DNA from: Dehalococcoidia bacterium
GTDB taxonomy: Bacteria > Chloroflexota > Dehalococcoidia > Lucifugimonadales > UBA2985
Direction of reading: 5' to 3'
Length of the DNA: 64,000 nucleotides
NCBI GenBank assembly: GCA_965218945.1
Contig: OZ244718.1
Location: forward strand, 2,621,700-2,685,699
In this document: positions 2-62,344 of the stretch, piece after piece
Layout of the letters: every line of letters begins with the position of its first letter
Position numbering within the stretch: the first letter of the stretch is position 1
Made by a program: the position numbers and the translations under genes
The notes under the pieces: generated by a model
What the model saw: only the letters and a program-made list of their open reading frames with translations
What the model was told of the DNA's origin: nothing
Database searches by the model: none

Positions 2-3000
2 GCGACGACGGCGGCCGAGCCGACGACGTTCGCGGCGGCGGTGGGCGACGAGGAGGTCGTGCTGTCGTGGGACGCGCCGGATTCCGCTTCGGGCGTCACG
101 CGCCACGAGTACCAGTACAAGGAGGGGACCGGGGCCTACCAGGGCTGGGAGCAGATCGCCAACAGCGGGGTGGACGGCGCGAACGAGGCCGGCTTCACGG
201 TGACGGGCCTGACCAACGAGGTCCTCCACACCTTCCAGCTCCGCGCGGTGAACGCCCAGGGCGAGAGCACCGCGGCCGAGGCGGACGCGGTGACGCCGAC
301 GCCCGGCATCTGCGGCCGCACGGCGAAGATCCAGGAGGTGATCCTGGCCGAGCTCGCGGACGTCAGCGAGTGCGCGGCGGTGACCGTGGCCGACCTGGCG
401 TCGATCACGACGTTCGGGCTGAGCGCGCTCGGCACGTTCAACCAGGGGATCACCTCGCTCCAGGCGGGCGATTTCGCGGGGCTGACGGCGCTGACGCAAC
501 TTAACCTGAGTCAAAACCAGCTCACGACGCTGCCCGAGGGGATCTTCTCCGGCCTGACCGCGGTTGAGGGAATCAGCATGGAACAAAACCAGCTGACGGC
601 GCTGCCCGAGGGGATGTTCGCGGGGCTTCCAAATCTGACATTGATCCTATTGACGGGTAACAGTCTCACCGCCATCCCGCCCCGGGCGTTCGCCGGCCTG
701 ACGGGGCTAACAAACATCAGTCTGGGCCTTAACGATCTGACTGCCCTGCCCGCCGGGCTGTTCACCGACCTGACGACGCTGGAAAACATCAGTCTGGCCG
801 ATAACGACCTGACTGCCCTGCCGGCCGGGGTGTTCTCGGGCCTGACGGTGCTGGATACTCTCTATCTGGGCGGAAACGAATTGAGTTCGCTCGACGCCGG
901 GGTGTTCTCCGGCCTGACGTCGCTGGAGCGCCTCGAACTGGATCGCAACGACCTGAGTTCGCTCCCCGCCGGGGTGTTCTCCGGCTTGGCGGCGTTGACA
1001 CGCCTCAATCTGGACGACAACGATCTGAGTTCGCTCCCCGACGGCCTGCTCTCCGGCCTGACGGGGCTGACACGGCTCCAGCTGTTCGACAACCCCAACT
1101 CCGGCGATACGCTGGCGCTGACCGTGACGGTGGAGAAGTTCGGGACCGACCAGGCGCGGGCGAAGGTGCTGGCGGGGGCGCCGTTCGCGGTGAACTTCAC
1201 GGCGACGGTGGTGAACGGTTCGCTCCCGACGGGCGTCACGAAGCTTGCCGTGGCGGCGGGCTCGGTGGAGGGCACGGCGGTCACCGTGACCCGCACGTCC
1301 GGGACGATGGCGGCGGTGACGGTGGACATCGACCTGACCACCCAGCCGACCCTGCCCGAGTTCCACAGTGGCTACGAGTTCGTGAAGGCGACCTCGGGCC
1401 TGCCGGCGGAGATCCTGCCGGACACCAGGGGCCCCCAGAATTTCACCGCCAAGCCGGGCGACGGGCAGGCCGTGCTGTCGTGGACCGCGCCGGCGTCGGG
1501 TTCCGGCGTGACGAAACACCAGTACCGCCAGAAGGAGGGGACCGGGAGCTATCCCGCGAACTGGACTGACATCCCCAACAGCGCGGAGGGCGAGGCGAAC
1601 GAGGACGGCTACACGGTGCCGGGCCTCACCAACGAGACGGTATACACCTTCGAGCTCAAGCGGTTCGTCGGCACGACCGAGAGCGCGACGGCGGAGTCGA
1701 ACGCGGTGACGCCGACGCCCGGCATCTGCGACCGCACGCAGCAGGTGCAGGACGGCATCCTGGCCGGGCTCGCGGACGTCAGCGACTGCGCGGCGGTGAC
1801 CGTCGCCGACCTGGAGAGTTTCACGGCCTCCCTGGAGTTTGCGGGTGAGGACATCGCGTCGCTGAAGTCGGGCGACTTCGCGGGGCTGTCGAACCTGGAT
1901 GTCCTGGAACTTTCCAGAAACACCTTCACCACGCTTCCCGCGAACGTGTTCTCCGGCCTGACGTCGCTGACAAGCCTGAAGGTGTCAAACGGCGAGCTGA
2001 GTTCGATCGACGCCCGGGCGTTCTCCGGGCTAACGGCGCTGGAAGTACTCAAACTGGATACCAACGACCTGGATTCGCTCCCCGGGACCGTGTTCTCCGG
2101 TCTGACGACGCTGATAACCCTCGAGCTGAACGGTAACGACCTGGCCTCGCTTCCCGGGACCGTGTTCAATGGCCTGTCGGCGCTGCATACTCTTCATCTG
2201 CAGAGCAACGATCTGGAAACGCTCCCCGCCGGGCTGTTCTCCGGCCTGTCGGCGCTGTCAACCCTCACACTGGCCGATAACGATCTGACTGCGATCCCCG
2301 CCCAGGTGTTCTCCGGCCTGTCGGCGCTGGAAATCCTCAATCTGAGCGACAACGACCTGAACTCGCTCGACGCCGGGGTGTTCTCCGGCCTGAGCAATCT
2401 GCGATCCCTGTCGCTGCGAAACAACCAACTGAGTGCGCTCCCCGACGGGCTGTTCTCCGGCCTAACGGCGCTGACTGGTCTCAATCTGAGCGACAACACC
2501 ACCAACCCCATGCCGCTCACGGTGACGGTGGAGAAGTTCGGGACCGACCAGGCGCGGGCGAAGGTGCTCGCGGGGGCGCCGTTCGCGGTGGAGTTCACGG
2601 CGACGGTGGTGAACGGTTCGCTCCCGACGGGCGTCACGAAGCTTGCCGTGGCGAAGGGCTCGGCGGAGGGCACGGCGGTCACCGTGACCCGCACGACCGG
2701 GACGATGGAGGCGGTGACGGTGGACATCGACCTGAGCACCCAGCCGTCCCTGCCCGACAAGCACGAGGGCTACACCTTCGCCCGGGCCTCGGACCTGCCG
2801 GCGGAAATCCTGCCGGCGGAGGCGTCGCTGGAGCCGCCGACCGGCCTCAGCGCCACGCCCGGCGACCGGCTGGCGGTTCTCACCTGGACCCCGCCGGCGT
2901 CGGATTCGGGCTTCACGCGCCACCAGTACCGCTACGGGACGGACGGAGACTTCGTGGACTGGACGGATATCCCCGACAGCGGGCCGGGCGAAGCGAACGG

Positions 3001-6000
3001 GTCGCGGTACACGGTGACGGGGCTCGACAACGCGGTTGAGTACAGCTTCGAGCTGCGCGCGCGGGACGCGGGCGCCGGTAGGAGCCACGCGGCGACGGTG
3101 GCGGTGACGCCGGAGGGTCCGCCGCGGATCCTCTCGGTCGAGGTGACCTCGGTTCCGGTCCTGGACAACGAGACCACCTACGGCGCGGGCGAGGAGGTCG
3201 ATATCTCGGTGACCTTCGACCAGCCGGTGGTGGTCGAGGGCGCCCCGCAGCTCGTGCTCGACGTGGACGGATCGCGCCTGGCGGAGTACCACGAGGGCAG
3301 CGGCAGCAACACGCTGGTGTTCGCCTACGTGGTGACGGAGAGCGACCGAGATACCGACGGCGTCTCGGTCGGCGACAACGCGCTCCGGCTGGACGGCGGC
3401 GACGTCATCCGCAACGGCGCGGGCGACGCCGCCGAGCTGGACCACGAGGGGCTGGGCCAGCAGTCCGGCCACATGGTGGACGGCGGGCGGCGGGCTGGCG
3501 TGCACGATCACGGCGAGTTCACCCACTCGCATTCGCATTCCAGGCAACAGTATCCCGAGCACACGCACGAGGGCCACGAGCACCCCGACGAGGCCAACGA
3601 CCACAAGCGCCGGCCCGGGACGCACGTGCACCACGCGCAGGAGGACCTGAATGCGGAAATCTCCGGCGGCCCCGACCTGCGCGGGCACGACAATGTCGAG
3701 CACACGCACCTCTGCTATGACCTGAAACCCTCGTGCAACCAGGGCGACCTCTACAGCGAGCGGGGCGACGAGCTGGGGCTGCCGATCGAGGTGACCCATT
3801 CCCACGAGCACTCCGAGCCGGGCCACCGCTTCGACTGGCGGGCGTTCTTCGAGGGAGGCGGGTCCGGCGCGACGGTGTCGGTGGCGGACGCGGTGGCGGT
3901 GCGAGGCGAGGGCCGCACGCTGGACTTCGAGGTGAGCCTGGAGCCGGCGGTGGCGTTCGCGGTGCGGGTGGACTACGCGACGGTGGACGGCACGGCGACC
4001 GCGGGCGAGGACTACCGGGAGACGTCGGGCGTGCTGGAGATCCCGCCCGGGCAGACGCGCGGGACGGTGTCGGTGCGGATGCCGGCGGACGGGCCGGGGG
4101 ACGGCCCGGAACTGTTCGAACTGACGCTGGGCTCCGCCACGGCGACGACGGTGGCGGACGGCGAGGCGACGGGCACGATCCTGACGCCGGGGCCGTCGAC
4201 GCCGCCGGTGATCGAGAGGATCGCGGTGGCCTCGACGCCGCGGCTGAGCTCGGACGGCAACTGGAAGGACACCTACGGCGAGGGCGAGAACATCCGCATC
4301 GAGGTGACCTTCGACCAGCCGGTGGTGGTGGTGGGCGACCCGACGTTCGCGCTCGAGGTGGGCGACCCGTGCGAGTCGGTGTGCGAGGCCGACTACGAGT
4401 CGGGGAGCGGCGCGGACACGCTGGTGTTCGCGTACCTGGTGCTGGAGGTCGACGTCGACCGCAACGGCGTCGCGATCCGCGGCAACCCGATCGAGGTGGT
4501 GCTCGGCGACAGCATCCGCAACGCGGCGGGCCAGGAGGCGGACCTTTCCTCCAAGGGGAAGGGCACGCAGCACAACCACAGGGTGAACGGGTCGCGGTCG
4601 GCGGCGGCGCACCTGTCGGTGGCGAACGCCGAGGCGCGCGAGGCCGACGGCGAGATGACGTTCACGGTGCGCCTGGAACCGCACGGGCTGGGCATCGTGA
4701 CGGTCAACTACGCGACGAGCGACGGCTCGGCGCGGGCGGGCGAGGACTACACGGAGACGGGCGGCAGGCTGAGGTTCAATTCGCTGGAGACGGAGCGGAC
4801 GGTGACGGTGCCGATCACGGACGACACCGAGCCGGACGACGGCGAGACGTTCACGCTTACGCTGTCGAACCCGGACGGCGCGAAGATCAGGGCCGGCGAC
4901 GGCGAGGCCACGGGCACGATCCACAACAGCGAGCCGCAGGAGGCGCTGACGGCGTCCTTCGAGGACGTGCCGGCGGCGCACGACGGCGCCGCGTTCCGGT
5001 TCCGGGTGGCGTTCAGCGAGGACATCGGCATCAGCTTCCAGGCGCTGCGCGAGGACGCGTTCGCGGTGACGAACGGGCGGATCACGGACGGGGTGCCGGT
5101 GGACGACCGGCGGGACCTGTTCGATATGACGCTGGAGCCGGACGGCGACGGCGACGTGGCGGTCACGCTTGAGGCGGACCGCGACTGCGCGGAGTCCGGG
5201 GCGATCTGCACGAAGGGCGAGCCGCAGCGGCGGCTGACGACCACGGTGTCGGCGATGGTGGCCGGCCCGGACGGCGCGGCAAACGCCCCGGCCACGGGCG
5301 CGCCGGCCATCGCGGGCAGGCTCCGGGTGGGGGAGATCCTTTCCGCCCTGACCTCGGGCATCGCCGACGAGGACGGGCTGGAGGAGGCGGAGTTCGCCCA
5401 CCAGTGGCTCCGCGGGGACGCGGACATCGCCGGCGCCACCGGCTACAGATACACCCTGGCCGATAGCGACGAGGGCAGGACCATCAGGGTAAGGGTGACC
5501 TTCACCGACGACGCGGGCAACGAGGAGTCGCTGACCAGCGCACCCACGGAGCCGGTGTTGGAGGAGCCGGTGTTTGGGGACGGCCCGCCGGGAGCGCCGC
5601 GCAACCTCACCGTCACCGCCGGAGACCAGGAGGTCACCCTGTCCTGGGAGCCGCCCGACGACAACGGCAACGCGCCCGCGACGAGATACCGCATCGAGTG
5701 GAGGATAGACGGCAAGGACTACAAAAAGGGGCATTGGGGCCCATCGGGAGAGACTACCTATACGAAGACCGACCTGGCCAATGGAGTGAAGTACATCTTC
5801 CGGGTAAAGGCCGAGAACGGCAACGGCAACAGCTACGGACCATACGGACCGGCCTCTGAGGAGGTGAGCGCCACCCCTACGTCCGGCTCGGCGGTGGACC
5901 TGGGCACGCCGGTGCTGTCGAACACGAAGACCCTGCATCACGGCATGGTGAAGCTGGACTGGGAGGACGTAGAGGACGCCGGTTGGTATGTAGTCCAGTA

Positions 6001-7804
6001 CTACCACGTCAAAGGTGGGGAGTGGCTGGACCTGCCCGCCGCCGGAGTGGACATCGCGTTCCACGGTTCGAGCGCGGTGGTGAGCAACCTGCATGGGCTC
6101 TCGTGGCTGAGGGTTCGAGCGATGAGCTGTGCCGGAGAATCGGAGTGGTCGCAGATCGAGGAGTTGTACGGGACCAACGCATCGGACTGGGAGGGCGTGC
6201 CCGTGCCGGAGGTGGAGGAGGGCGACGAGATCGAGCCATGCCCCGTGATCCTGGGCACGCCGGTGCTTTCGAACACGGAGACCCTGCATCACGGCATGGT
6301 GCAGCTGGACTGGCAGGACATTGAGGACGCCGGTTGGTACGTGGTCCAGTACTACCACGCCAAAGGTGGGGAGTGGTTGGATCTGCCCGCCGAGGGAGTG
6401 GACATCGCGTTCCACGGGTCAAGCGCGGTGGTGAGCAACCTGCATGGGCTCTCGTGGCTGAGGGTTCGAGCGATGAGCTGTGCAGGAGCATCGGAGTGGT
6501 CGCAGATCGAGGAGTTGTACGGGACCAATGCATCGGACTGGGAGGGCGTGCCCGTACCGGAGGTGGCGGAGGGCGACGAGATCGAGCCGTGCTCCGAAGA
6601 CGCGGACACATCTGACAACACACCAGCCACCGGAGTTCCCACGATCAGCGGGACCGCCCAAGTCGGAGAGACCCTGACGGCGAACACGTCTGGGGTCGCC
6701 GACGCCGACGGCCTAACGAACGCCACCCACAGATACCAGTGGCTTGCGGACGACGCTGCAATCGCGGGCGCTACCGGCTCGACCTACACCCTTGCCGATA
6801 GCGAAGAGGGCAAGGCCATCACGGTGCAGGTGAGCTTCACCGACGACGCGGGCAACAATGAGACGCTGACCAGCACGGCCACGGACGCAGTGGCGGCAGC
6901 GCCCACGCCCAACAGTCCGGCCACCGGCGCGCCCACCATCAGCGGGACGGCCCAGGTGGGCGAAACGCTCACGGTGGACACGTCGGGGATCGCCGACGCC
7001 GACGGGCTTAGCAACGTCCAGTACGAGTACCAGTGGCTGGCCGACGATACCGAAATCGCGGGGGCTACAGGCTCCACATACACCGTGGCCGCCGCTGACG
7101 AAGGCAAGGCCATCAAGGTCCGAGTCACCTTCACCGACGACGCGGGCAACGAGGAAACGCTGACCAGCGCAGCGACGGCAGCCGTGGCCGGTGCGCAACC
7201 CACGGAGCCGCCCGCCAGGCCCACGGGCCTCTCGGCCACGGCGTCCCACGACTCGGTGACCCTCACCTGGGAAGACCCCGGCGACGACACCATCACCGGC
7301 TACGTGATCCTGCGGCGCGTCCGCGTGAACAATACCGGGGGCGACTTCAGTGAACTGGTGGCGGACACGGGCACAGCGGCGACCACCTACACCGACGACA
7401 CGGTGGCTGCCGGCACCACTTACACCTACCGTATCAAGGCCATCAACGGGGCCGGAACGAGTGAACGCTCGCGCTGGTTCCACATCGACACTCCGGCAGC
7501 GCCCGTACCCGATAAGCCCACGGGCTTGTCCGCCACGGCGTCCCACGACTCGGTGACCCTCACCTGGGAAGACCCCGGCGACGATAGCATCACCGGCTAC
7601 GTGATCCTGCGGCGCCTCCGCTACGACGACCCCTCGGGCCACTTCGATGAGTTGGTGGCGGACACGGGGACGGCGGCGACCACGTACACCGACGATACGG
7701 CAAAGGCCAACACTCACTATACCTACCGGATCAAGGCCATCAGCGGGGCCGGGGTGAGCGAGCGTTCCCGCTGGTTCCACATCCAGACCCAGGAGGCCCC
7801 GTAG
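2..7804 (+). CDS. Giant secreted/surface multi-domain protein, 5'-truncated by the window edge (FN3, two LRR blocks, Ig-like, His-rich, two Calx-beta, four ~95-aa beta repeats, duplicated C-terminal FN3)
   Basis: The reading frame is open from position 2, with no stop upstream of the GVDE... residues at 41. FN3-like 'VLSWxAPxxxSGVTxHxYxxKEG...Y.F.LRA' units recur. There are two blocks of ~24-aa 'LxxLxLxxNxLtxLPxGxFxGL' leucine-rich repeats. Two 'DYxxxxGxLxFxxGxTxxTVxV' Calx-beta-like units are present. Stop is TAG at 7802-7804. Confidence 0.8.
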   Translation, partial: ATTAAEPTTFAAAVGDEEVVLSWDAPDSASGVTRHEYQYKEGTGAYQGWEQIANSGVDGANEAGFTVTGLTNEVLHTFQLRAVNAQGESTAAEADAVTPTPGICGRTAKIQEVILAELADVSECAAVTVADLASITTFGLSALGTFNQGITSLQAGDFAGLTALTQLNLSQNQLTTLPEGIFSGLTAVEGISMEQNQLTALPEGMFAGLPNLTLILLTGNSLTAIPPRAFAGLTGLTNISLGLNDLTALPAGLFTDLTTLENISLADNDLTALPAGVFSGLTVLDTLYLGGNELSSLDAGVFSGLTSLERLELDRNDLSSLPAGVFSGLAALTRLNLDDNDLSSLPDGLLSGLTGLTRLQLFDNPNSGDTLALTVTVEKFGTDQARAKVLAGAPFAVNFTATVVNGSLPTGVTKLAVAAGSVEGTAVTVTRTSGTMAAVTVDIDLTTQPTLPEFHSGYEFVKATSGLPAEILPDTRGPQNFTAKPGDGQAVLSWTAPASGSGVTKHQYRQKEGTGSYPANWTDIPNSAEGEANEDGYTVPGLTNETVYTFELKRFVGTTESATAESNAVTPTPGICDRTQQVQDGILAGLADVSDCAAVTVADLESFTASLEFAGEDIASLKSGDFAGLSNLDVLELSRNTFTTLPANVFSGLTSLTSLKVSNGELSSIDARAFSGLTALEVLKLDTNDLDSLPGTVFSGLTTLITLELNGNDLASLPGTVFNGLSALHTLHLQSNDLETLPAGLFSGLSALSTLTLADNDLTAIPAQVFSGLSALEILNLSDNDLNSLDAGVFSGLSNLRSLSLRNNQLSALPDGLFSGLTALTGLNLSDNTTNPMPLTVTVEKFGTDQARAKVLAGAPFAVEFTATVVNGSLPTGVTKLAVAKGSAEGTAVTVTRTTGTMEAVTVDIDLSTQPSLPDKHEGYTFARASDLPAEILPAEASLEPPTGLSATPGDRLAVLTWTPPASDSGFTRHQYRYGTDGDFVDWTDIPDSGPGEANGSRYTVTGLDNAVEYSFELRARDAGAGRSHAATVAVTPEGPPRILSVEVTSVPVLDNETTYGAGEEVDISVTFDQPVVVEGAPQLVLDVDGSRLAEYHEGSGSNTLVFAYVVTESDRDTDGVSVGDNALRLDGGDVIRNGAGDAAELDHEGLGQQSGHMVDGGRRAGVHDHGEFTHSHSHSRQQYPEHTHEGHEHPDEANDHKRRPGTHVHHAQEDLNAEISGGPDLRGHDNVEHTHLCYDLKPSCNQGDLYSERGDELGLPIEVTHSHEHSEPGHRFDWRAFFEGGGSGATVSVADAVAVRGEGRTLDFEVSLEPAVAFAVRVDYATVDGTATAGEDYRETSGVLEIPPGQTRGTVSVRMPADGPGDGPELFELTLGSATATTVADGEATGTILTPGPSTPPVIERIAVASTPRLSSDGNWKDTYGEGENIRIEVTFDQPVVVVGDPTFALEVGDPCESVCEADYESGSGADTLVFAYLVLEVDVDRNGVAIRGNPIEVVLGDSIRNAAGQEADLSSKGKGTQHNHRVNGSRSAAAHLSVANAEAREADGEMTFTVRLEPHGLGIVTVNYATSDGSARAGEDYTETGGRLRFNSLETERTVTVPITDDTEPDDGETFTLTLSNPDGAKIRAGDGEATGTIHNSEPQEALTASFEDVPAAHDGAAFRFRVAFSEDIGISFQALREDAFAVTNGRITDGVPVDDRRDLFDMTLEPDGDGDVAVTLEADRDCAESGAICTKGEPQRRLTTTVSAMVAGPDGAANAPATGAPAIAGRLRVGEILSALTSGIADEDGLEEAEFAHQWLRGDADIAGATGYRYTLADSDEGRTIRVRVTFTDDAGNEESLTSAPTEPVLEEPVFGDGPPGAPRNLTVTAGDQEVTLSWEPPDDNGNAPATRYRIEWRIDGKDYKKGHWGPSGETTYTKTDLANGVKYIFRVKAENGNGNSYGPYGPASEEVSATPTSGSAVDLGTPVLSNTKTLHHGMVKLDWEDVEDAGWYVVQYYHVKGGEWLDLPAAGVDIAFHGSSAVVSNLHGLSWLRVRAMSCAGESEWSQIEELYGTNASDWEGVPVPEVEEGDEIEPCPVILGTPVLSNTETLHHGMVQLDWQDIEDAGWYVVQYYHAKGGEWLDLPAEGVDIAFHGSSAVVSNLHGLSWLRVRAMSCAGASEWSQIEELYGTNASDWEGVPVPEVAEGDEIEPCSEDADTSDNTPATGVPTISGTAQVGETLTANTSGVADADGLTNATHRYQWLADDAAIAGATGSTYTLADSEEGKAITVQVSFTDDAGNNETLTSTATDAVAAAPTPNSPATGAPTISGTAQVGETLTVDTSGIADADGLSNVQYEYQWLADDTEIAGATGSTYTVAAADEGKAIKVRVTFTDDAGNEETLTSAATAAVAGAQPTEPPARPTGLSATASHDSVTLTWEDPGDDTITGYVILRRVRVNNTGGDFSELVADTGTAATTYTDDTVAAGTTYTYRIKAINGAGTSERSRWFHIDTPAAPVPDKPTGLSATASHDSVTLTWEDPGDDSITGYVILRRLRYDDPSGHFDELVADTGTAATTYTDDTAKANTHYTYRIKAISGAGVSERSRWFHIQTQEAP
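5900..6601 (+). repeat. Near-identical tandem duplication (2 x 351 bp, 117 aa each) inside the giant CDS
   Basis: 5900-6250 and 6251-6601 both start 'ctgggcacgccggtgct'. They encode 'LGTPVLSNTxTLHHGMVxLDWxDxEDAGWYVVQYYH...' with only scattered substitutions. Confidence 0.85.
7220..7801 (+). repeat. Near-identical tandem duplication (2 x ~297 bp) of the C-terminal FN3 domain of the giant CDS
   Basis: Both units begin 'cccacgggc..tc.gccacggcgtcccacgactcggtgaccctcacctgggaagaccccggcgacga', at 7220 and 7517. Confidence 0.85.
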
Positions 7805-15767: not shown

Positions 15768-16805
15768 CTATGCTGCGATGTCGGTGATCTCGCCGCCGTA
15801 CAGGTCCAGGGCGACGACGGTGGTCGTGAGCTTCTCCCGGTGGACCTCCTTCTCCGGGGAGTCCTCCACCATGACCATCTCCTTCGAGGTCCTCCCCTTG
15901 ACCAGGATGCGCCGCCCGTCCGCTTCCAGGACGAGGTTGTCGAGGAAGCCCGCCGACACCAGCATCGCCATGTGGCCCCTTCTGAGGGGCATCAGTGGAC
16001 GGGTGCGGGTGTCCCTCGCGGGCCAGAGTGTGTCGGTGACCTCAGCGCTGGTCCACAATCCCGACCGCCGCGCCTCGGCAGCAGCAGCGACGGGATCGAC
16101 GGTGCGGGTGGTGAAGAGGATGTCCCCGCTGGGCGTGGTCTCCGGGCTGTAGTCCGTGTAGGGGTGGGAGCGCAGCGGCTCCGGCTCCCCCACCGCCCAC
16201 TCCAGCACCATGCGCTCGGCGTGGGCGTCGGGAACGGGATCGGCCTTCCGGTAGGCCAAGAGCGCCACCTGGTCGAATACCTGCCGCTCCGGGTCGGGGA
16301 AGGCCCAGCATCGCATATACCCGTAGTGGGTGGACAGGTAGCGGGCCGAGACCGCCAGGCGCTGCCTGGGAACGATGAAGACCAGCAGGCCGCCATCGGC
16401 CAAGTAGCGGGTCGTGTGCGTCAGGAAGGCGTGCTCCGTCCGCTTGTCCTCCGAGTCGTAATCGTAGGGCGGATTGAGCAAGAGCAGCCCGAAGGCCCCG
16501 TTCGCTATCGACGTGGCGAAGAGGTCCGAGGCCAGGGCGTGGTCGAGCCGCTCCTCCGCCTCCTGCGCCCGGTCCCGGTGCAGCTCGACGCCGTAGGTCT
16601 CGATGGGGATGGCGTTGGGCCTGTCCAGCCGCTGGGCCAGCTGCGCCAGCGCCTCTCCGGCCCCGCAGCACGGGTCGAGGATGCGCAGCGTGTTCCGGCC
16701 CCGGTTGTAGTAGCCGGAGGGGGTGTTAATCAGCTCCGCGATCAGGTCGACGACCCTGGGCGGTGTGGGGTAGAATCCGCCCTTTGCCTGTGCAGCGAGT
16801 CTCAT
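15768..16805 (-). CDS. SAM-dependent N6-adenine DNA methyltransferase
   Basis: Motif I is 'ILDPCCGAGE' and motif IV is 'LLLNPPYD'. The start overlaps the upstream stop (ATGA). Confidence 0.85.
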   Translation of the reverse strand: MRLAAQAKGGFYPTPPRVVDLIAELINTPSGYYNRGRNTLRILDPCCGAGEALAQLAQRLDRPNAIPIETYGVELHRDRAQEAEERLDHALASDLFATSIANGAFGLLLLNPPYDYDSEDKRTEHAFLTHTTRYLADGGLLVFIVPRQRLAVSARYLSTHYGYMRCWAFPDPERQVFDQVALLAYRKADPVPDAHAERMVLEWAVGEPEPLRSHPYTDYSPETTPSGDILFTTRTVDPVAAAAEARRSGLWTSAEVTDTLWPARDTRTRPLMPLRRGHMAMLVSAGFLDNLVLEADGRRILVKGRTSKEMVMVEDSPEKEVHREKLTTTVVALDLYGGEITDIAA

Positions 16806-17999: not shown

Positions 18000-18509
18000 T
18001 CAGGGCATCAGCCCCCGTTCCTTGAGGCTGACGAACCGCTCGCCGCCGATGACCACGTGATCCAGCAGCTCGATGTCCAGCAATTTGCCCGCCTGGACCA
18101 GATCGCGGGTGAGGGCCGCGTCCTCGGGGCTAGGCGTCGGGTCCTGGCTGGGATGGTTGTGGCTGATAATGATGCTGGGGACGGCCTCGATGACCGCCGG
18201 GCGGAAGACCTCGGCATTCCTCACGATGGCCGAGGACACGTTGCCCTGGTAGATGACCCGCTGACCCACAACCTGGTTCCTGGCGTTGAGAAGCAGCACC
18301 CGCATCTGCTCCTGGGCCAGGGGAGCCATCTCCGGCCCCAGCAGCCTGCGCACGTCGTCGGGGCAGGAGATGACGGGTAGGTCTTCCGTGGGGCGCTCCG
18401 GGTGGAACTCCACGTCGTAGCGCGCCGCCAGCTCTCCCAGCAGGTTCAGGTTGCTGCGAAGCGCCTCAAGCAGCGCGGCGTCCTTGGTGGTGGTCTTCTT
18501 CATGGTCAT
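18000..18509 (-). CDS. radC: RadC-family JAB-domain protein
   Basis: 'IISHNHPSQDPTPSPEDAALTRDL...LLDHVVIG' is the canonical RadC JAMM motif. AAGGAGG lies 5 nt upstream of the ATG. Confidence 0.9.
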   Translation of the reverse strand: MTMKKTTTKDAALLEALRSNLNLLGELAARYDVEFHPERPTEDLPVISCPDDVRRLLGPEMAPLAQEQMRVLLLNARNQVVGQRVIYQGNVSSAIVRNAEVFRPAVIEAVPSIIISHNHPSQDPTPSPEDAALTRDLVQAGKLLDIELLDHVVIGGERFVSLKERGLMP

Positions 18510-22343: not shown

Positions 22344-23399
22344 CTAGCGGGCGGAGCGGGCCGCCCGGTCAAGCAGGCGCAGGAGGAGGGCACGCCCCCG
22401 GGGATGCGCCGCAAGCTCGCCCACGTCGCCGACGCCCTGGGGTAGGGTGACGGCAGCGGCCCGGCGTCCAAGCAAGCCCGCAAGCCGCTCGGTGGCCTCA
22501 AGGCCAGCGTCGTCGTTGTCGAAGGCGAGGAAGACGCGGGGGCAGCCCCGCAGGCCCTCCGCCACCTTGTCGACTCCCTGGGTGCCCAGTGCTGCGACTG
22601 CGAGGAGTCCCCAGCCTGCAAGGGCAAGCCAGTCGAAGACCCCCTCCGCCAAGACCACCCAGGGAGGCGCAACCCCAAGACGCCCAAGCCCCAGCGCCGG
22701 CTTGGGGCCGGGCAACGCCTGGAACCGGGGCGTCCGGTCGGGGTCTATGGCCCGGCCCACGAGCCAGCGGACGAGGCCGCCGGAGAGGTCGGGCACGACC
22801 ACCGTCCCGGCGAACCGCTCTGTGCCCTGGGCCATGAACAGCCCGGAGTCCCTGAGACGCTTCTTGGAGAAGCCCTGGGACTCCAGGGCCTGCCGCAGCC
22901 CGCTGCCCGGCGCGTAGCCGAGGCCCAGGCGGGCGGCGGCGGCGGGGCCGACGCCCCGGGAGGCCAGGTACTCCTGAGCCTCGGATTCGAGACGCAGTTG
23001 TCCGGCGTAGAAGCGCGCCGCCACCGTCAGCAGGTTGGGGTCGCGGGGTGGCAGCGCCGCGGCCTCCGGAGGTTGCCGCGGGTCGGCTGGACGGTTGGCG
23101 GCCTTGGGCGCAAGACCTGGGCCGCCGTCCAGCCGCGCGATGGCTTCGGGGAGCGTCAGGTCCTCCATGCGCCGCACGAAGTCCAGCACGTCACCTCCCT
23201 CGCCGCACCCGAAGCAGTAGAACCGCTCCGTATCGCCGTACACCGTGAAGCTGCCCTCCGCCTCGTCGTGGAAGGGGCAGACGCCCTGTCGGACCCTGCC
23301 TCTTCCCTTGAGCCGCACGCCCGCCGCCTCCACCGTGTCTCCCAGGGGGTGCCGGGACTTCAGCGCGTCCAGGTCCACCTGGTCGCCGGCCGCTAGCAT
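22344..23399 (-). CDS. DnaG-like primase (CHC2 zinc finger plus Toprim)
   Basis: 'GVCPFHDEAEGSFTVYGDTERFYCFGCGEGGDVLDFV' is the CHC2 finger. Toprim-like 'VVLAEGVFDWL' and 'FLAFDNDDAG' follow. Confidence 0.85.
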   Translation of the reverse strand: MLAAGDQVDLDALKSRHPLGDTVEAAGVRLKGRGRVRQGVCPFHDEAEGSFTVYGDTERFYCFGCGEGGDVLDFVRRMEDLTLPEAIARLDGGPGLAPKAANRPADPRQPPEAAALPPRDPNLLTVAARFYAGQLRLESEAQEYLASRGVGPAAAARLGLGYAPGSGLRQALESQGFSKKRLRDSGLFMAQGTERFAGTVVVPDLSGGLVRWLVGRAIDPDRTPRFQALPGPKPALGLGRLGVAPPWVVLAEGVFDWLALAGWGLLAVAALGTQGVDKVAEGLRGCPRVFLAFDNDDAGLEATERLAGLLGRRAAAVTLPQGVGDVGELAAHPRGRALLLRLLDRAARSAR

Positions 23400-38834: not shown

Positions 38835-39038
38835 TAGCTTCACGCCCAGTGACCTCCTCAATCTTTTACCACACAAATTACCACATTGTTGGCGAGACAA
38901 CAAGGGCTTTTGGGGGTAAGCGAGGGAGGCCGAATTCAGCCAAGTTAAGCCTTGTGTACACCTAACCTAGCTATGAAACAGAGGCATATTGAGACGTGTG
39001 CTGACCGATGGAGAATGGAGGAGACGGGGAGGGGAAAG

Positions 39039-39111
39039 TGGAGATAGGGGGACTCGAACCCCCAACCTCGGCGTTGCGAACGCCGCGCTCTCCCTGTTGA
39101 GCTATATCCCC
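39039..39111 (-). tRNA. tRNA-Ala (anticodon CGC)
   Basis: Hand-folded cloverleaf. Acceptor is GGGGATA/TATCTCC with the G3:U70 alanine identity pair. D arm is GCTC-AACAGGGA-GAGC. Anticodon arm is CGGCG-TTCGCAA-CGCCG. T arm is GGGGG-TTCGAGT-CCCCC. Discriminator is A and no CCA is encoded. Confidence 0.9.
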
Positions 39112-59165: not shown

Positions 59166-59543
59166 ATGGGTATTTTTCGTAAGAATGTAGTGGTGAGGGG
59201 AAGAAGCGAATCGGCCGTGGATATAGTTCCCGCTTTGGTAGATACAGGGGCTACCTATTCTATGCTTCCAAGCAGTTTGATGAGTGAGATGGGTGTAGAG
59301 GCAAGTAAGTATGACACGTTCACTCTAGCGGACGGCCGCAAGCAGCGGTTTCCTACCGGGGAAGTACGTCTTGGGGTCTGGTTCGAGAGGGATGGCTGGA
59401 ACTCCTTTGTAGAGCGTTATAGTCCTGTCATCTTCGGTCCGGATGATTGCTTTTTACTGGGGGCAATCACTCTTCAGATATTTGGGTTGATTGCCGACAC
59501 AACTAACCATAAAGTGATCCCCGCGCCAGAGATGACCTTATAA
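59166..59543 (+). CDS. Retropepsin-like (clan AA) aspartyl protease
   Basis: 'ALVDTGATYSMLP' contains the catalytic D-T-G. The size, 125 aa, is typical. Confidence 0.75.
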   Translation: MGIFRKNVVVRGRSESAVDIVPALVDTGATYSMLPSSLMSEMGVEASKYDTFTLADGRKQRFPTGEVRLGVWFERDGWNSFVERYSPVIFGPDDCFLLGAITLQIFGLIADTTNHKVIPAPEMTL

Positions 59544-59658: not shown

Positions 59659-60381
59659 ATGCCCGTCATATCGCCGCAAGACCGCCAGACCCTGGAGGAG
59701 CGCTTTCGGAAGGAGCTCAAGAGGAAAATCACCCTGCGGCTCTTCACTTCCCAGTTAGCCGGACAGCTGTTTGTTCCGGGGAGGGAGTGCCCCACCTGCC
59801 CCCAGACCCAGCAGATTCTGGAGGAATTGACCTCCCTCTCCCCGCTGCTTGAGCTGGAGACCGTCGATTACTACAGCCAGGGCCAGACGGCGCGGGAGAG
59901 CGGCGTGGAGCGCATCCCCGCCATAGTGGTGACCAGGGGCGAAAACACCGGCGTCAAGTACTACGGAATGCCGTCGGGCTACGAGTTCGTCACCATCATC
60001 GAAAGCGCAATCGAGCTGTCCAAGCCCAGGACCTCTCTGAGCGCCGACACTCGGAAGAAGCTGCAACTGGTGGACGAGGACGTCCACATCCAGGTGTTCG
60101 TGACACCCACCTGACCCCACTGCCCCTCGGTGGCCCGTGTGGCCCAGATGATGGCGATGGAGAACGACCACATCAAGACGGACGTGGTGGAGGTGCAGGA
60201 GTTCCCTCAGATAGCCCAGAGGTACCGTGTCATGGGAGTGCCCAAGACCGTCATCAACGAGACCACCCAGTTCATCGGCGCAGTCCCGGAGGAGACCTTC
60301 ATAGGCAAGGTGCTGGAGGCCATTGGCAAGGCGGAGGCAGCCCCCGACTCTGAGGACCCAGCGCCGTCCACGTCAATCTAG
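59659..60381 (+). CDS. Two-domain glutaredoxin-like protein-disulfide oxidoreductase with an in-frame TGA (Sec candidate) at 60112-60114
   Basis: ORFs 59659-60114 and 60130-60381 are in the same frame. The first unit has 'ECPTCPQT'. The second reads 'IQVFVTPT-TGA-PHCPSVARVAQMMAMEN...FPQIAQRYRVMGVPKTVIN', so the TGA sits where the family has the first Cys of 'TPTCPxCP'. Confidence 0.65.
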
Positions 60382-61239: not shown

Positions 61240-62344
61240 CTACCCCTCTTTCCCCACTGTACCCAGGAGGTACGCCTGAATCAGTGGGTCCAGCTCGCCG
61301 TCCAGCACCGCGCCCGGGTCCGATGTCTCGTAGCCGGTGCGGTGGTCCTTCACCATCTTGTAGGGGTGCAGGACGTAGCTCCTTATCTGGCTGCCCCACT
61401 CCGCCGAGACGTGCTCGCCCTTCAGCCTGGCCTGCTCCTCCGCTCGCCGCTTCATCTCCAGCTCCATCAGCCGGGCGCGCAGAACCTTCATGGCGAACTC
61501 CTTGTTCTGGAACTGGGAACGCTCGTTCTGACAGGTCACCACAACGCCCGACGGCAGGTGGGTTATACGCACGGCCGTGGCGTTCTTCTGCACCGCCTGC
61601 CCACCGTGGCCGCTGGCCCGGTAAACGTCGATGCGCAGGTCGTCCGTGTTGATGGTGACATCGACCCGCTCCTCCGCCTCCGGCAGCACCTCCACAAGGG
61701 CAAATGACGTGTGCCTCATGTGAGCGGAGTCGAAGGGCGACAGGCGCACTAGCCGGTGGGTCCCACCCTCGGCCTTCAGGTAGCCATAGGCGTGCTTGCC
61801 CTCCACGCTGATGACGGCGCTCTTGACCCCCGCCTCGTCTCCCGGCGACATGTCCAGGATTTCGCTCTTGTAGCGACGGCGCTCCGTCCACCGCAGGTAC
61901 ATCCGCATGAGCATCTGGGCCCAGTCCTGGGACTCGGTCCCGCCCGCGCCTGCGTGGATGGCCAGGATTGCGTTGCGGGTGTCGTACTCGCCGGAGAGTG
62001 TGAGCTGGAATTCCCTGTCCTTCAGCTCCTCGGAAATGGCCTCCAGCTCTGCGAACAGGGATTCCTCCAGGCTCGTATCGTCCTCCTCCAGCGCCAGCGC
62101 GATCAGGTCGCAGGCCGATGAAGCGCGGCTTTCGAAGTCTCTCCACGTTTCCACCACGTCCTTGATATCCGCCAGGCGAATCATATGCGGCTGGGTGGCC
62201 TGTGGGTCGTCCCAAAACTCCGGTCGACCGGCCCGGGCCTCAAGCTGTTTTATCTCTACCTCTTTGCCGGGTACGTCAAAGACGCTCCAGAAGCTGAGCT
62301 ATCCTCTCCCTAAGGTCTTCTGCGCGTCCTCTGAGTTCCTGCAT
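61240..62344 (-). CDS. prfB: Peptide chain release factor 2, with a programmed +1 frameshift
   Basis: Frame 0 reads ATG(62344) 'MQELRGRAEDLRERIAQLLERL' then CTT TGA C. The +1 frame continues 'DVPGKEVEIKQLEARAGRPEFWDDPQ...'. The SPF ('RLSPFDS') and GGQ ('ASGHGGQAV') motifs are present. Confidence 0.92.
62275..62290 (-). promoter_or_regulatory. prfB +1 frameshift site (GGAGCG-tCTT-TGA-C)
   Basis: On the minus strand CTT is 62281-62279, TGA is 62278-62276 and C is 62275. A Shine-Dalgarno-like GGAG lies a few nt upstream. Confidence 0.85.

Follow-up and report, generated by a model that had tools for sequence, protein, structure and literature searches.

The interval 59659–60381 on the forward strand of the 64,000-nucleotide stretch of Dehalococcoidia DNA that we analysed (the window) is very probably a single gene for a selenocysteine (Sec)-containing protein disulfide oxidoreductase (PDO) of the known AhpF-N-terminal-homolog/Grx-like/PDO family (TIGR02187). 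A preliminary description of this DNA had drawn attention to two open reading frames (ORFs) in the same frame, parted by the TGA at 60112–60114 alone. Our analysis confirmed that this TGA is the sole interruption of one reading frame on the + strand, which runs to a TAG at 60379–60381. The upstream ORF (59659–60114) encodes 151 aa, has the C-terminal end ...DVHIQVFVTPT and is terminated by the TGA. Past the TGA, the frame reads PHCPSVARVAQMMAMEN...AQRYRVMGVPKTVINE... (which includes GVPKTVIN) and stays open until the TAG. The composition is of coding type on both sides of the TGA, with GC3 values of 0.85 and 0.86.

The joined protein of 240 aa (~26 kDa), translated with Cys in place of the TGA, matched Pfam Thioredoxin_3 in two stretches, together with DUF7088, and its residues ~224–240 form an Ala/Pro/Glu-rich C-terminal tail. 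Both Cys residues of the N-terminal CPTC motif are invariant in a five-sequence alignment of the clade (alignment A2), and CPTC lines up with the N-terminal CQYC of the Pyrococcus PDO. The [U/C]xxC motif of the second thioredoxin-fold unit is present as U-P-H-C. The positions of these features, and of others discussed below, are collected in Table 1.

Table 1. Coordinates of the predicted selenoprotein gene, its motifs and candidate RNA elements in the window, and of the selA-containing stretches on two metagenome contigs
Feature	Coordinates	Strand	Basis or remark
Complete predicted selenoprotein gene	59659..60381	+	240 codons + TAG, Sec = codon 152; frame, Pfam, TIGR02187.2, PDB homology
N-terminal redox motif C44-P-T-C47 (TGC CCC ACC TGC)	59788..59799	+	Sequence, alignments
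In-frame UGA, putative Sec U152	60112..60114	+	TGA at same codon in relatives; aligns with first Cys of CPYC
C-terminal active site U-P-H-C (TGA CCC CAC TGC), residues 152–155	60112..60123	+	Sequence, PDO structure alignment
Candidate SECIS apical hairpin	60130..60145	+	Same structure in 36 class B sequences
Possible extended SECIS	60121..60156	+	RNAalifold consensus and pair counts (93% paired; U-G/U-A and C-G/U-G alternation)
selA-to-PDO stretch, contig L042	4510–9050	+	Metagenome contig
selA-to-PDO stretch, contig L022	~350–5078	-	Metagenome contig

The joined protein matches the NCBIfam equivalog model TIGR02187.2 "PDO_seleno_TRX" (protein disulfide oxidoreductase) with 244 bits against a cut-off of 185, and the alignment is full length, with residues 6–221 lying on model positions 2–209 of 209. 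Homology to PDOs of solved structure likewise spans the full length (PDB 1J08, E = 3e-40, residues 5–222; 1A8L, E = 8.6e-40). The nearest structures are the Pyrococcus, Aquifex and Aeropyrum PDOs (E values from 3e-40 to 5e-25); the AhpF N-terminal domain comes next. With Thioredoxin_3 found twice, these matches bear out the earlier assignment to two-thioredoxin-fold PDO or glutaredoxin-like proteins. In alignments with Cys homologs and with 1J08 and 1A8L, the TGA falls on the first Cys of the C-terminal CPYC (TPT-U-PHCP versus TPT-C-PYCP), which is the N-terminal, nucleophilic Cys of TPTCPxCP, where the preliminary description had placed it.

The window protein shares two thioredoxin folds, an N-terminal CxxC and a C-terminal site in an FVTPT context with the hyperthermophile PDOs, namely those of Pyrococcus furiosus (1A8L), P. 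horikoshii (1J08), Aquifex aeolicus (2AYT, 2YWM) and Aeropyrum pernix (2HLS). Those enzymes, however, read '...FVTPTCPYCP...', with Cys at the attacking position where the window protein has a putative Sec, and they lack its Ala/Pro/Glu-rich tail. The AhpF N-terminal domain (PDB 1ZYN, 1HYU, 4O5Q; E ~1e-9) is a homologous double thioredoxin fold with a redox-active CxxC in its second unit, but AhpF carries a fused FAD/NADH thioredoxin-reductase module that the window protein is without. Identity as AhpF itself was considered and rejected, given a score of 66.8 bits against the TIGR03140 cut-off of 502.9 and a length of 240 aa with no flavoprotein module. In one JGI record of a relative in which the gene is split, a fragment is named 'alkyl hydroperoxide reductase subunit AhpF' (P0081).

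The AhpF N-terminal-domain homolog/Grx-like family has been tabulated as a UxxC selenoprotein with one Sec; it is credited to Kryukov & Gladyshev 2004, with ABB15282.1 as its representative, and the Sec status of the whole family is "predicted with high confidence", with no experimental verification (PMC13188914, PMC9312934). Its occurrence in Asgard archaea is likewise reported (PMC13188914, PMC9312934). We find no essential difference between the window protein and the catalogued TIGR02187 selenoproteins, a family in which Cys-containing homologs are widespread: it belongs to the same HMM family and has the UxxC motif, in which a single putative Sec opens the C-terminal redox site. What sets the window copy apart is its origin in an uncultured Dehalococcoidia lineage, its U-P-H-C motif and a comparatively weak SECIS-like hairpin. 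The gene is almost certainly a genuine selenoprotein gene of an already catalogued kind, the family having been known since 2004, and is not a discovery.

Conservation of the TGA carries most weight in this reading. A search of 5.8 billion proteins returned ~45 distinct proteins of 151–152 aa that are 76–97% identical to the N-terminal part, and the C-terminal end of every sequence retrieved is ...VFVTPT. A stop at exactly one column in dozens of distinct relatives is far beyond chance. At the DNA level, a TGA at the identical codon, an open frame after it and the homologous TAG are found in seven species-level Dehalococcoidia/Chloroflexota genomes, two of which are complete chromosomes, and the same TGA, open frame and TAG occur in three more divergent members of the clade. 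Close relatives with complete chromosomes include OZ253466.1 (protein 95% identical) and OZ242025.1 (92%). Downstream of the TGA, dN/dS is 0.05–0.18 among the window and six relatives (L001–L006) and 0.19–0.30 in comparisons with L007, the most divergent genome; synonymous divergence upstream of the TGA reaches ~0.9 among the window and its relatives. The presence of TGA in every close relative (76–97% identity), purifying selection after it and the match to a curated selenoprotein family favour the Sec reading that had been proposed from the window's letters.

The same data bear on two ways in which the stop could be spurious. The first is that the gene is a pseudogene, in which a TGC-to-TGA nonsense mutation in a Cys-type PDO has left a 151-aa remnant or nothing at all. 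One C-to-A change would be enough, the local hairpin is at chance level (see below) and no Sec machinery is seen in the window. Against these points, TGA with an intact frame is present in 10 related records and dozens of protein clusters across synonymous divergence of up to ~0.9, and decay would bring frameshifts and non-synonymous changes, whereas downstream dN/dS is 0.05–0.2 among the closest genomes. All relatives that are at least 76% identical carry TGA, and the nearest TGC forms, which are full-length Cys relatives reading TPT-C-PYCP, are at most 58% identical to the window protein. We therefore reject the pseudogene option that the preliminary description had kept in reserve; its probability is very close to nil. 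The second is a sequencing or assembly error that created a false stop, the least credible explanation of all, because the same codon recurs in independent assemblies from different projects, complete long-read chromosomes included. A conserved TGA, an open frame, low dN/dS and the translated codons described next dispose of both.

Another possibility is a split gene, with the two thioredoxin-fold units made separately and the second started from GTG 60130 or a later ATG, with no Sec involved. This is exactly what gene callers predict (151 aa plus 76–83 aa). As anticipated in the preliminary description, the homologous genes in records L136, L137 and L138 are annotated as two pieces, 1201–1656 (151 aa) and 1693–1923 (a 76-aa 'Thioredoxin_3' protein). 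Separate translation would also account for purifying selection downstream of the TGA while needing no Sec machinery. However, the first possible in-frame restart after the TGA is GTG 60130, and the five codons in between encode P-H-C-P-S, a conserved stretch that is part of the catalytic motif and that a re-initiated product would miss. Within the clade, the changes in these five codons are synonymous (CCA, CAT, TGT, TCT, TCC) apart from one conservative S-to-T replacement; the P-H-C-P codons vary by synonymous changes only, and the frame offers no start codon between the TGA and these codons. The five codons thus evolve as protein and are therefore translated, which is achievable only by read-through of the TGA. 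The conservation evidence set out above is itself a strong argument against two separately translated fragments. Furthermore, the stop is always TGA and never TAA or TAG, also in the 10 records retrieved through protein similarity, and family-wide selection acts on a hairpin at SECIS spacing. We regard the split-gene explanation as very improbable and retain the single selenoprotein gene. In the window's clade, the case for the predicted decoding rests on conservation, not on the hairpin.

The TGA form is not confined to this clade. Metagenome contigs were scanned with the DNA pattern F-[V/I/M]-T-P-T-TGA-P-x-C-P, and matches to highly varied copies were obtained on at least 120 contigs from soils, sediments, peat, groundwater and seawater. 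All of the matched contigs encode the two-domain homolog, with an open frame of ~70–95 codons after the TGA and few exceptions. In more than 130 TGA-form copies, the active-site stop is invariably TGA, with no TAA or TAG; the metagenome copies among them were chosen by the TGA in the pattern, but the 10 Dehalococcoidia/Chloroflexota records, all with TGA, were found by protein similarity. A protein-pattern scan of metagenome contigs with N-terminal peptides confirmed no copy. A few TGA-form copies have aberrant C-terminal parts (46 codons in L103; out-of-family tails in L052, L048 and L017), which may reflect frameshifts, assembly errors or genuine decay.

We also considered whether UGA might be read through as, or reassigned to, a standard amino acid such as Trp, Gly or Cys, a reading left some room by the fact that we infer the inserted residue from sequence. 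Yet ~21 of the 51 other called genes in the window end in TGA. In addition, prfB, encoding RF2 (PCRF and RF-1 domains), lies ~1 kb downstream of the PDO gene and convergent to it (61240–62330, - strand), and it contains a UGA-dependent +1 frameshift site, CUU UGA C, at 62275–62281 (-), after which the +1 frame goes on ...FWDDPQ...MIRLADIK. The TGA stops and the prfB site together argue that UGA is not reassigned here, and the position in question is that of the catalytic Cys in a catalogued UxxC selenoprotein family. Insertion of a standard amino acid is accordingly highly improbable, and Sec remains the predicted residue. In records L136–L138, prfB is also found downstream on the opposite strand. 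A scan of the window and L001–L007 for other conserved in-frame TGAs gave antisense artefacts only.

The E. coli fdhF type of SECIS is an intracoding hairpin: its minimal upper stem-loop lies ~11 nt past the UGA, its apical loop contains G-U, and a bulged U makes contact with SelB. To describe the corresponding region in the TGA-form family, we aligned 122 distinct TGA-form sequences without gaps (alignment A3); the alignment columns correspond to 60103–60174 of the window. Two hairpin types, in different registers, were found to track the peptide that follows C-P. In class A (n = 86; peptide ...x-A-V-x-L-A), the stem starts 11 nt past the UGA, the loop is CGUGxx and the stem varies by subgroup (GCGAGC/GCUCGC, GCCGGC/GCUGGC, CAGGC/GCCUG and GGCUGC/GCAGCU). 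In class B (n = 36, the window included; peptide ...[V/A/M]-A-R-x-A), a GGCC-loop-GGCC hairpin lies 3–4 nt further downstream than in class A; it has a bulged pyrimidine, its lower stem varies, and its loops are CGUGU, AGGUU or AGGCU. Class A thus resembles the fdhF element in having its stem exactly 11 nt past the UGA and GU at loop positions 2–3, and the class B hairpin of the window resembles it in its bulged U and CGUGU loop. The window's apical stem differs in having just 4–5 bp, in lying 3–4 nt further downstream and in having a stability no greater than that of codon-shuffled controls.

The stability of these hairpins was compared with that of shuffles of each gene's own synonymous codons. 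For the 27 nt at codons +4 to +12, the mean z was -1.68 in class A (p = 4e-27, n = 79) and -1.24 in class B (p = 1e-7, n = 33), versus -0.01 and -0.25, respectively, for an upstream control segment. Over the 45 nt after the UGA, z was -0.84 (p = 2.5e-15), and two controls lay close to zero. Counts of base pairs gave a similar picture. In class A, 78.7% of cells are paired in the fixed register versus 33–57% when the partners are slid, and the 29 cells changed on both sides were equalled by none of 500 shuffles. In class B, the corresponding values are 86.3% and 32–49%, and three pairs have compensatory changes, a result equalled by 4 of 500 shuffles. RNAalifold gave no meaningful consensus for the 86 class A sequences, because the register slides by 1–3 nt between subgroups on an ungapped codon alignment. 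On these sequence statistics, a SECIS-like hairpin with G/U in the loop, ~11–17 nt past the UGA, is under selection in the TGA-form family.

In the window itself, the candidate hairpin consists of a G60130–C60145 pair, a bulged U60131, GGCC 60132–60135 paired with GGCC 60141–60144, and the loop CGUGU (60136–60140), which begins 24 nt after the U of the UGA. The preliminary description had recognized only short stems and a GUGGCCC direct repeat. Both are present, the repeat at 60130–60136 and 60139–60145, and its two GGCC cores are the arms of the hairpin. The hairpin is conserved in the clade, and it could be extended by pairing of UGC 60121–60123 with GCG 60154–60156 and by the pairs U60127–A60148 and C60128–G60147 around a G.A mismatch. 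The evidence for the extension is weak because conserved Cys and Ala codons already dictate most of these bases. In the window and its closest relatives, the computed stability of the hairpin is at chance level (window, -6.8 kcal/mol versus -6.9 kcal/mol for synonymous shuffles), as is that of the 45 nt downstream of the UGA (z = +0.74, synonymous shuffles), and folding of 60100–60190 was not significant against dinucleotide shuffles (z = +0.96). A stronger hairpin, of ~-11 kcal/mol, is found in the L007 subclade, where Q-to-H and M-to-L replacements create GGUGG...CCACC. As for the SECIS-like structure sought after the UGA, a rightly placed hairpin with a G/U loop does exist, but it is weak and at chance level in the window's clade. 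The window's hairpin is consistent with a SECIS and is not itself evidence for one in this clade. A canonical SECIS has been recorded in only 87.4% of curated bacterial selenoprotein genes (BSepDB, PMC13326102).

Comparison with Cys forms suggests where such a hairpin may come from. Eight Cys-form relatives have three to five of the five apical pairs of the class B hairpin, with a mean stability of -6.2 kcal/mol versus -10.6 kcal/mol for Sec class B sequences. A nearly identical hairpin in Cys forms means that the hairpin is not diagnostic for the window's clade. A pair of metagenome sequences provides a close comparison between the two forms. L029, with TGA, and L128, with TGC (gene 601–1344, protein P0011), are 91.1% identical in DNA and differ at 17 aa, with four differences in the first 90 nt from the active-site codon. 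L029 retains an AGGAGG ribosome-binding site and an intact frame. To judge from its sequences, this pair represents a recent switch between a putative Sec form and a Cys form. We offer as a tentative and rather doubtful possibility that the SECIS-like hairpin of the window's branch is a by-product of the conserved [V/M]-A-R-x-A peptide with GCC Ala codons, and that it pre-existed in Cys forms, such that one TGC-to-TGA mutation would suffice to turn a Cys form into a Sec form, and the opposite mutation to turn it back. A hairpin pre-encoded by the peptide would account for the very weak, 'non-canonical' element of the window's clade as well as for the 91%-identical L029/L128 pair.

The machinery for Sec insertion was sought near the PDO gene and its relatives. 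With ARAGORN, neither the 64-kb window nor a set of 128 sequences (746 kb in total) yielded a tRNA-Sec, and Rfam at gathering thresholds returned one tRNA (Ala) and nothing else in the window. No selA, selB or selD was detected by Pfam among 20 window genes or by motif scan in 20-kb loci of relatives. Motif scans for SelA, SelB and SelD yielded only selA, in the metagenome contigs L022 and L042, where it lies on the same strand as a TGA-form PDO gene and 3.4–4.5 kb from it (PF03841, 446 bits in L042). An M24 peptidase gene and tsaD lie between selA and the PDO gene, with an ECF sigma factor gene also present in L022. Indirectly, selA on one contig with a TGA-form PDO gene and the selenoprotein-rich Dehalococcoidia of BSepDB speak for Sec machinery in the host.

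Within the window, the PDO gene is neighboured by genes for an MFS transporter, a 125-aa ORF and a putative lipoprotein, and by prfB and nfi; no thioredoxin reductase or peroxiredoxin (ahpC) gene was found by Pfam among 20 window genes. Immediately upstream of the PDO gene, the 125-aa ORF (59166–59543, +) contains 'VDTGAT', a retropepsin-like motif, but has no Pfam match at E <= 1e-5. The left 38 kb of the window (1–39111) has a GC content of 0.64–0.70 per 4-kb window, versus 0.57–0.62 at 40–64 kb. This part contains a 2587-aa ORF (41–7804, +) and genes for a DnaG-like primase (22344–23399, -), a DUF6094 methyltransferase (15768–16805, -) and RadC (18000–18509, -), and it ends near a tRNA-Ala(CGC) gene (39038–39111, -). 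Positions 1–39111 are probably an integrated mobile element.

We propose that the UGA at 60112–60114 would be decoded by Sec-tRNA(Sec) to give Sec152. The SelB-GTP-Sec-tRNA(Sec) complex would be recruited by a hairpin in the coding sequence after the UGA, most likely that at 60130–60145 with its CGUGU loop. In the protein, the selenolate of U-P-H-C would attack substrate disulfides, and Cys155 would resolve the resulting selenenylsulfide. By analogy with the Pyrococcus, Aquifex and Thermotoga PDOs, thermophile Grx-like proteins and the AhpF N-terminal domain, the active site would probably be recycled by a thioredoxin-reductase-type flavoenzyme, and electrons would probably be handed to protein disulfides or peroxiredoxins; homology to AhpF suggests an electron-relay role toward the latter.

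For a Dehalococcoidia lineage that is widespread and uncultured, joining the two annotated fragments amends the proteome. Two Dehalococcoidia metagenome-assembled genomes are among the top ten bacteria by number of selenoproteins, with 49 and 46 genes (BSepDB, PMC13326102), and the gene described here adds to the evidence for extensive selenium use in this class. Because the selenoprotein family, its UxxC motif and the use of Sec in Dehalococcoidia are already known, the scientific addition is small. Of mild interest are the weak SECIS-like element that is common to Cys forms in the clade and the evidence for easy switching between Sec and Cys. If the hairpin is indeed pre-encoded by the peptide, the family would lend itself naturally to testing which minimal features SelB recruitment requires in Chloroflexota.
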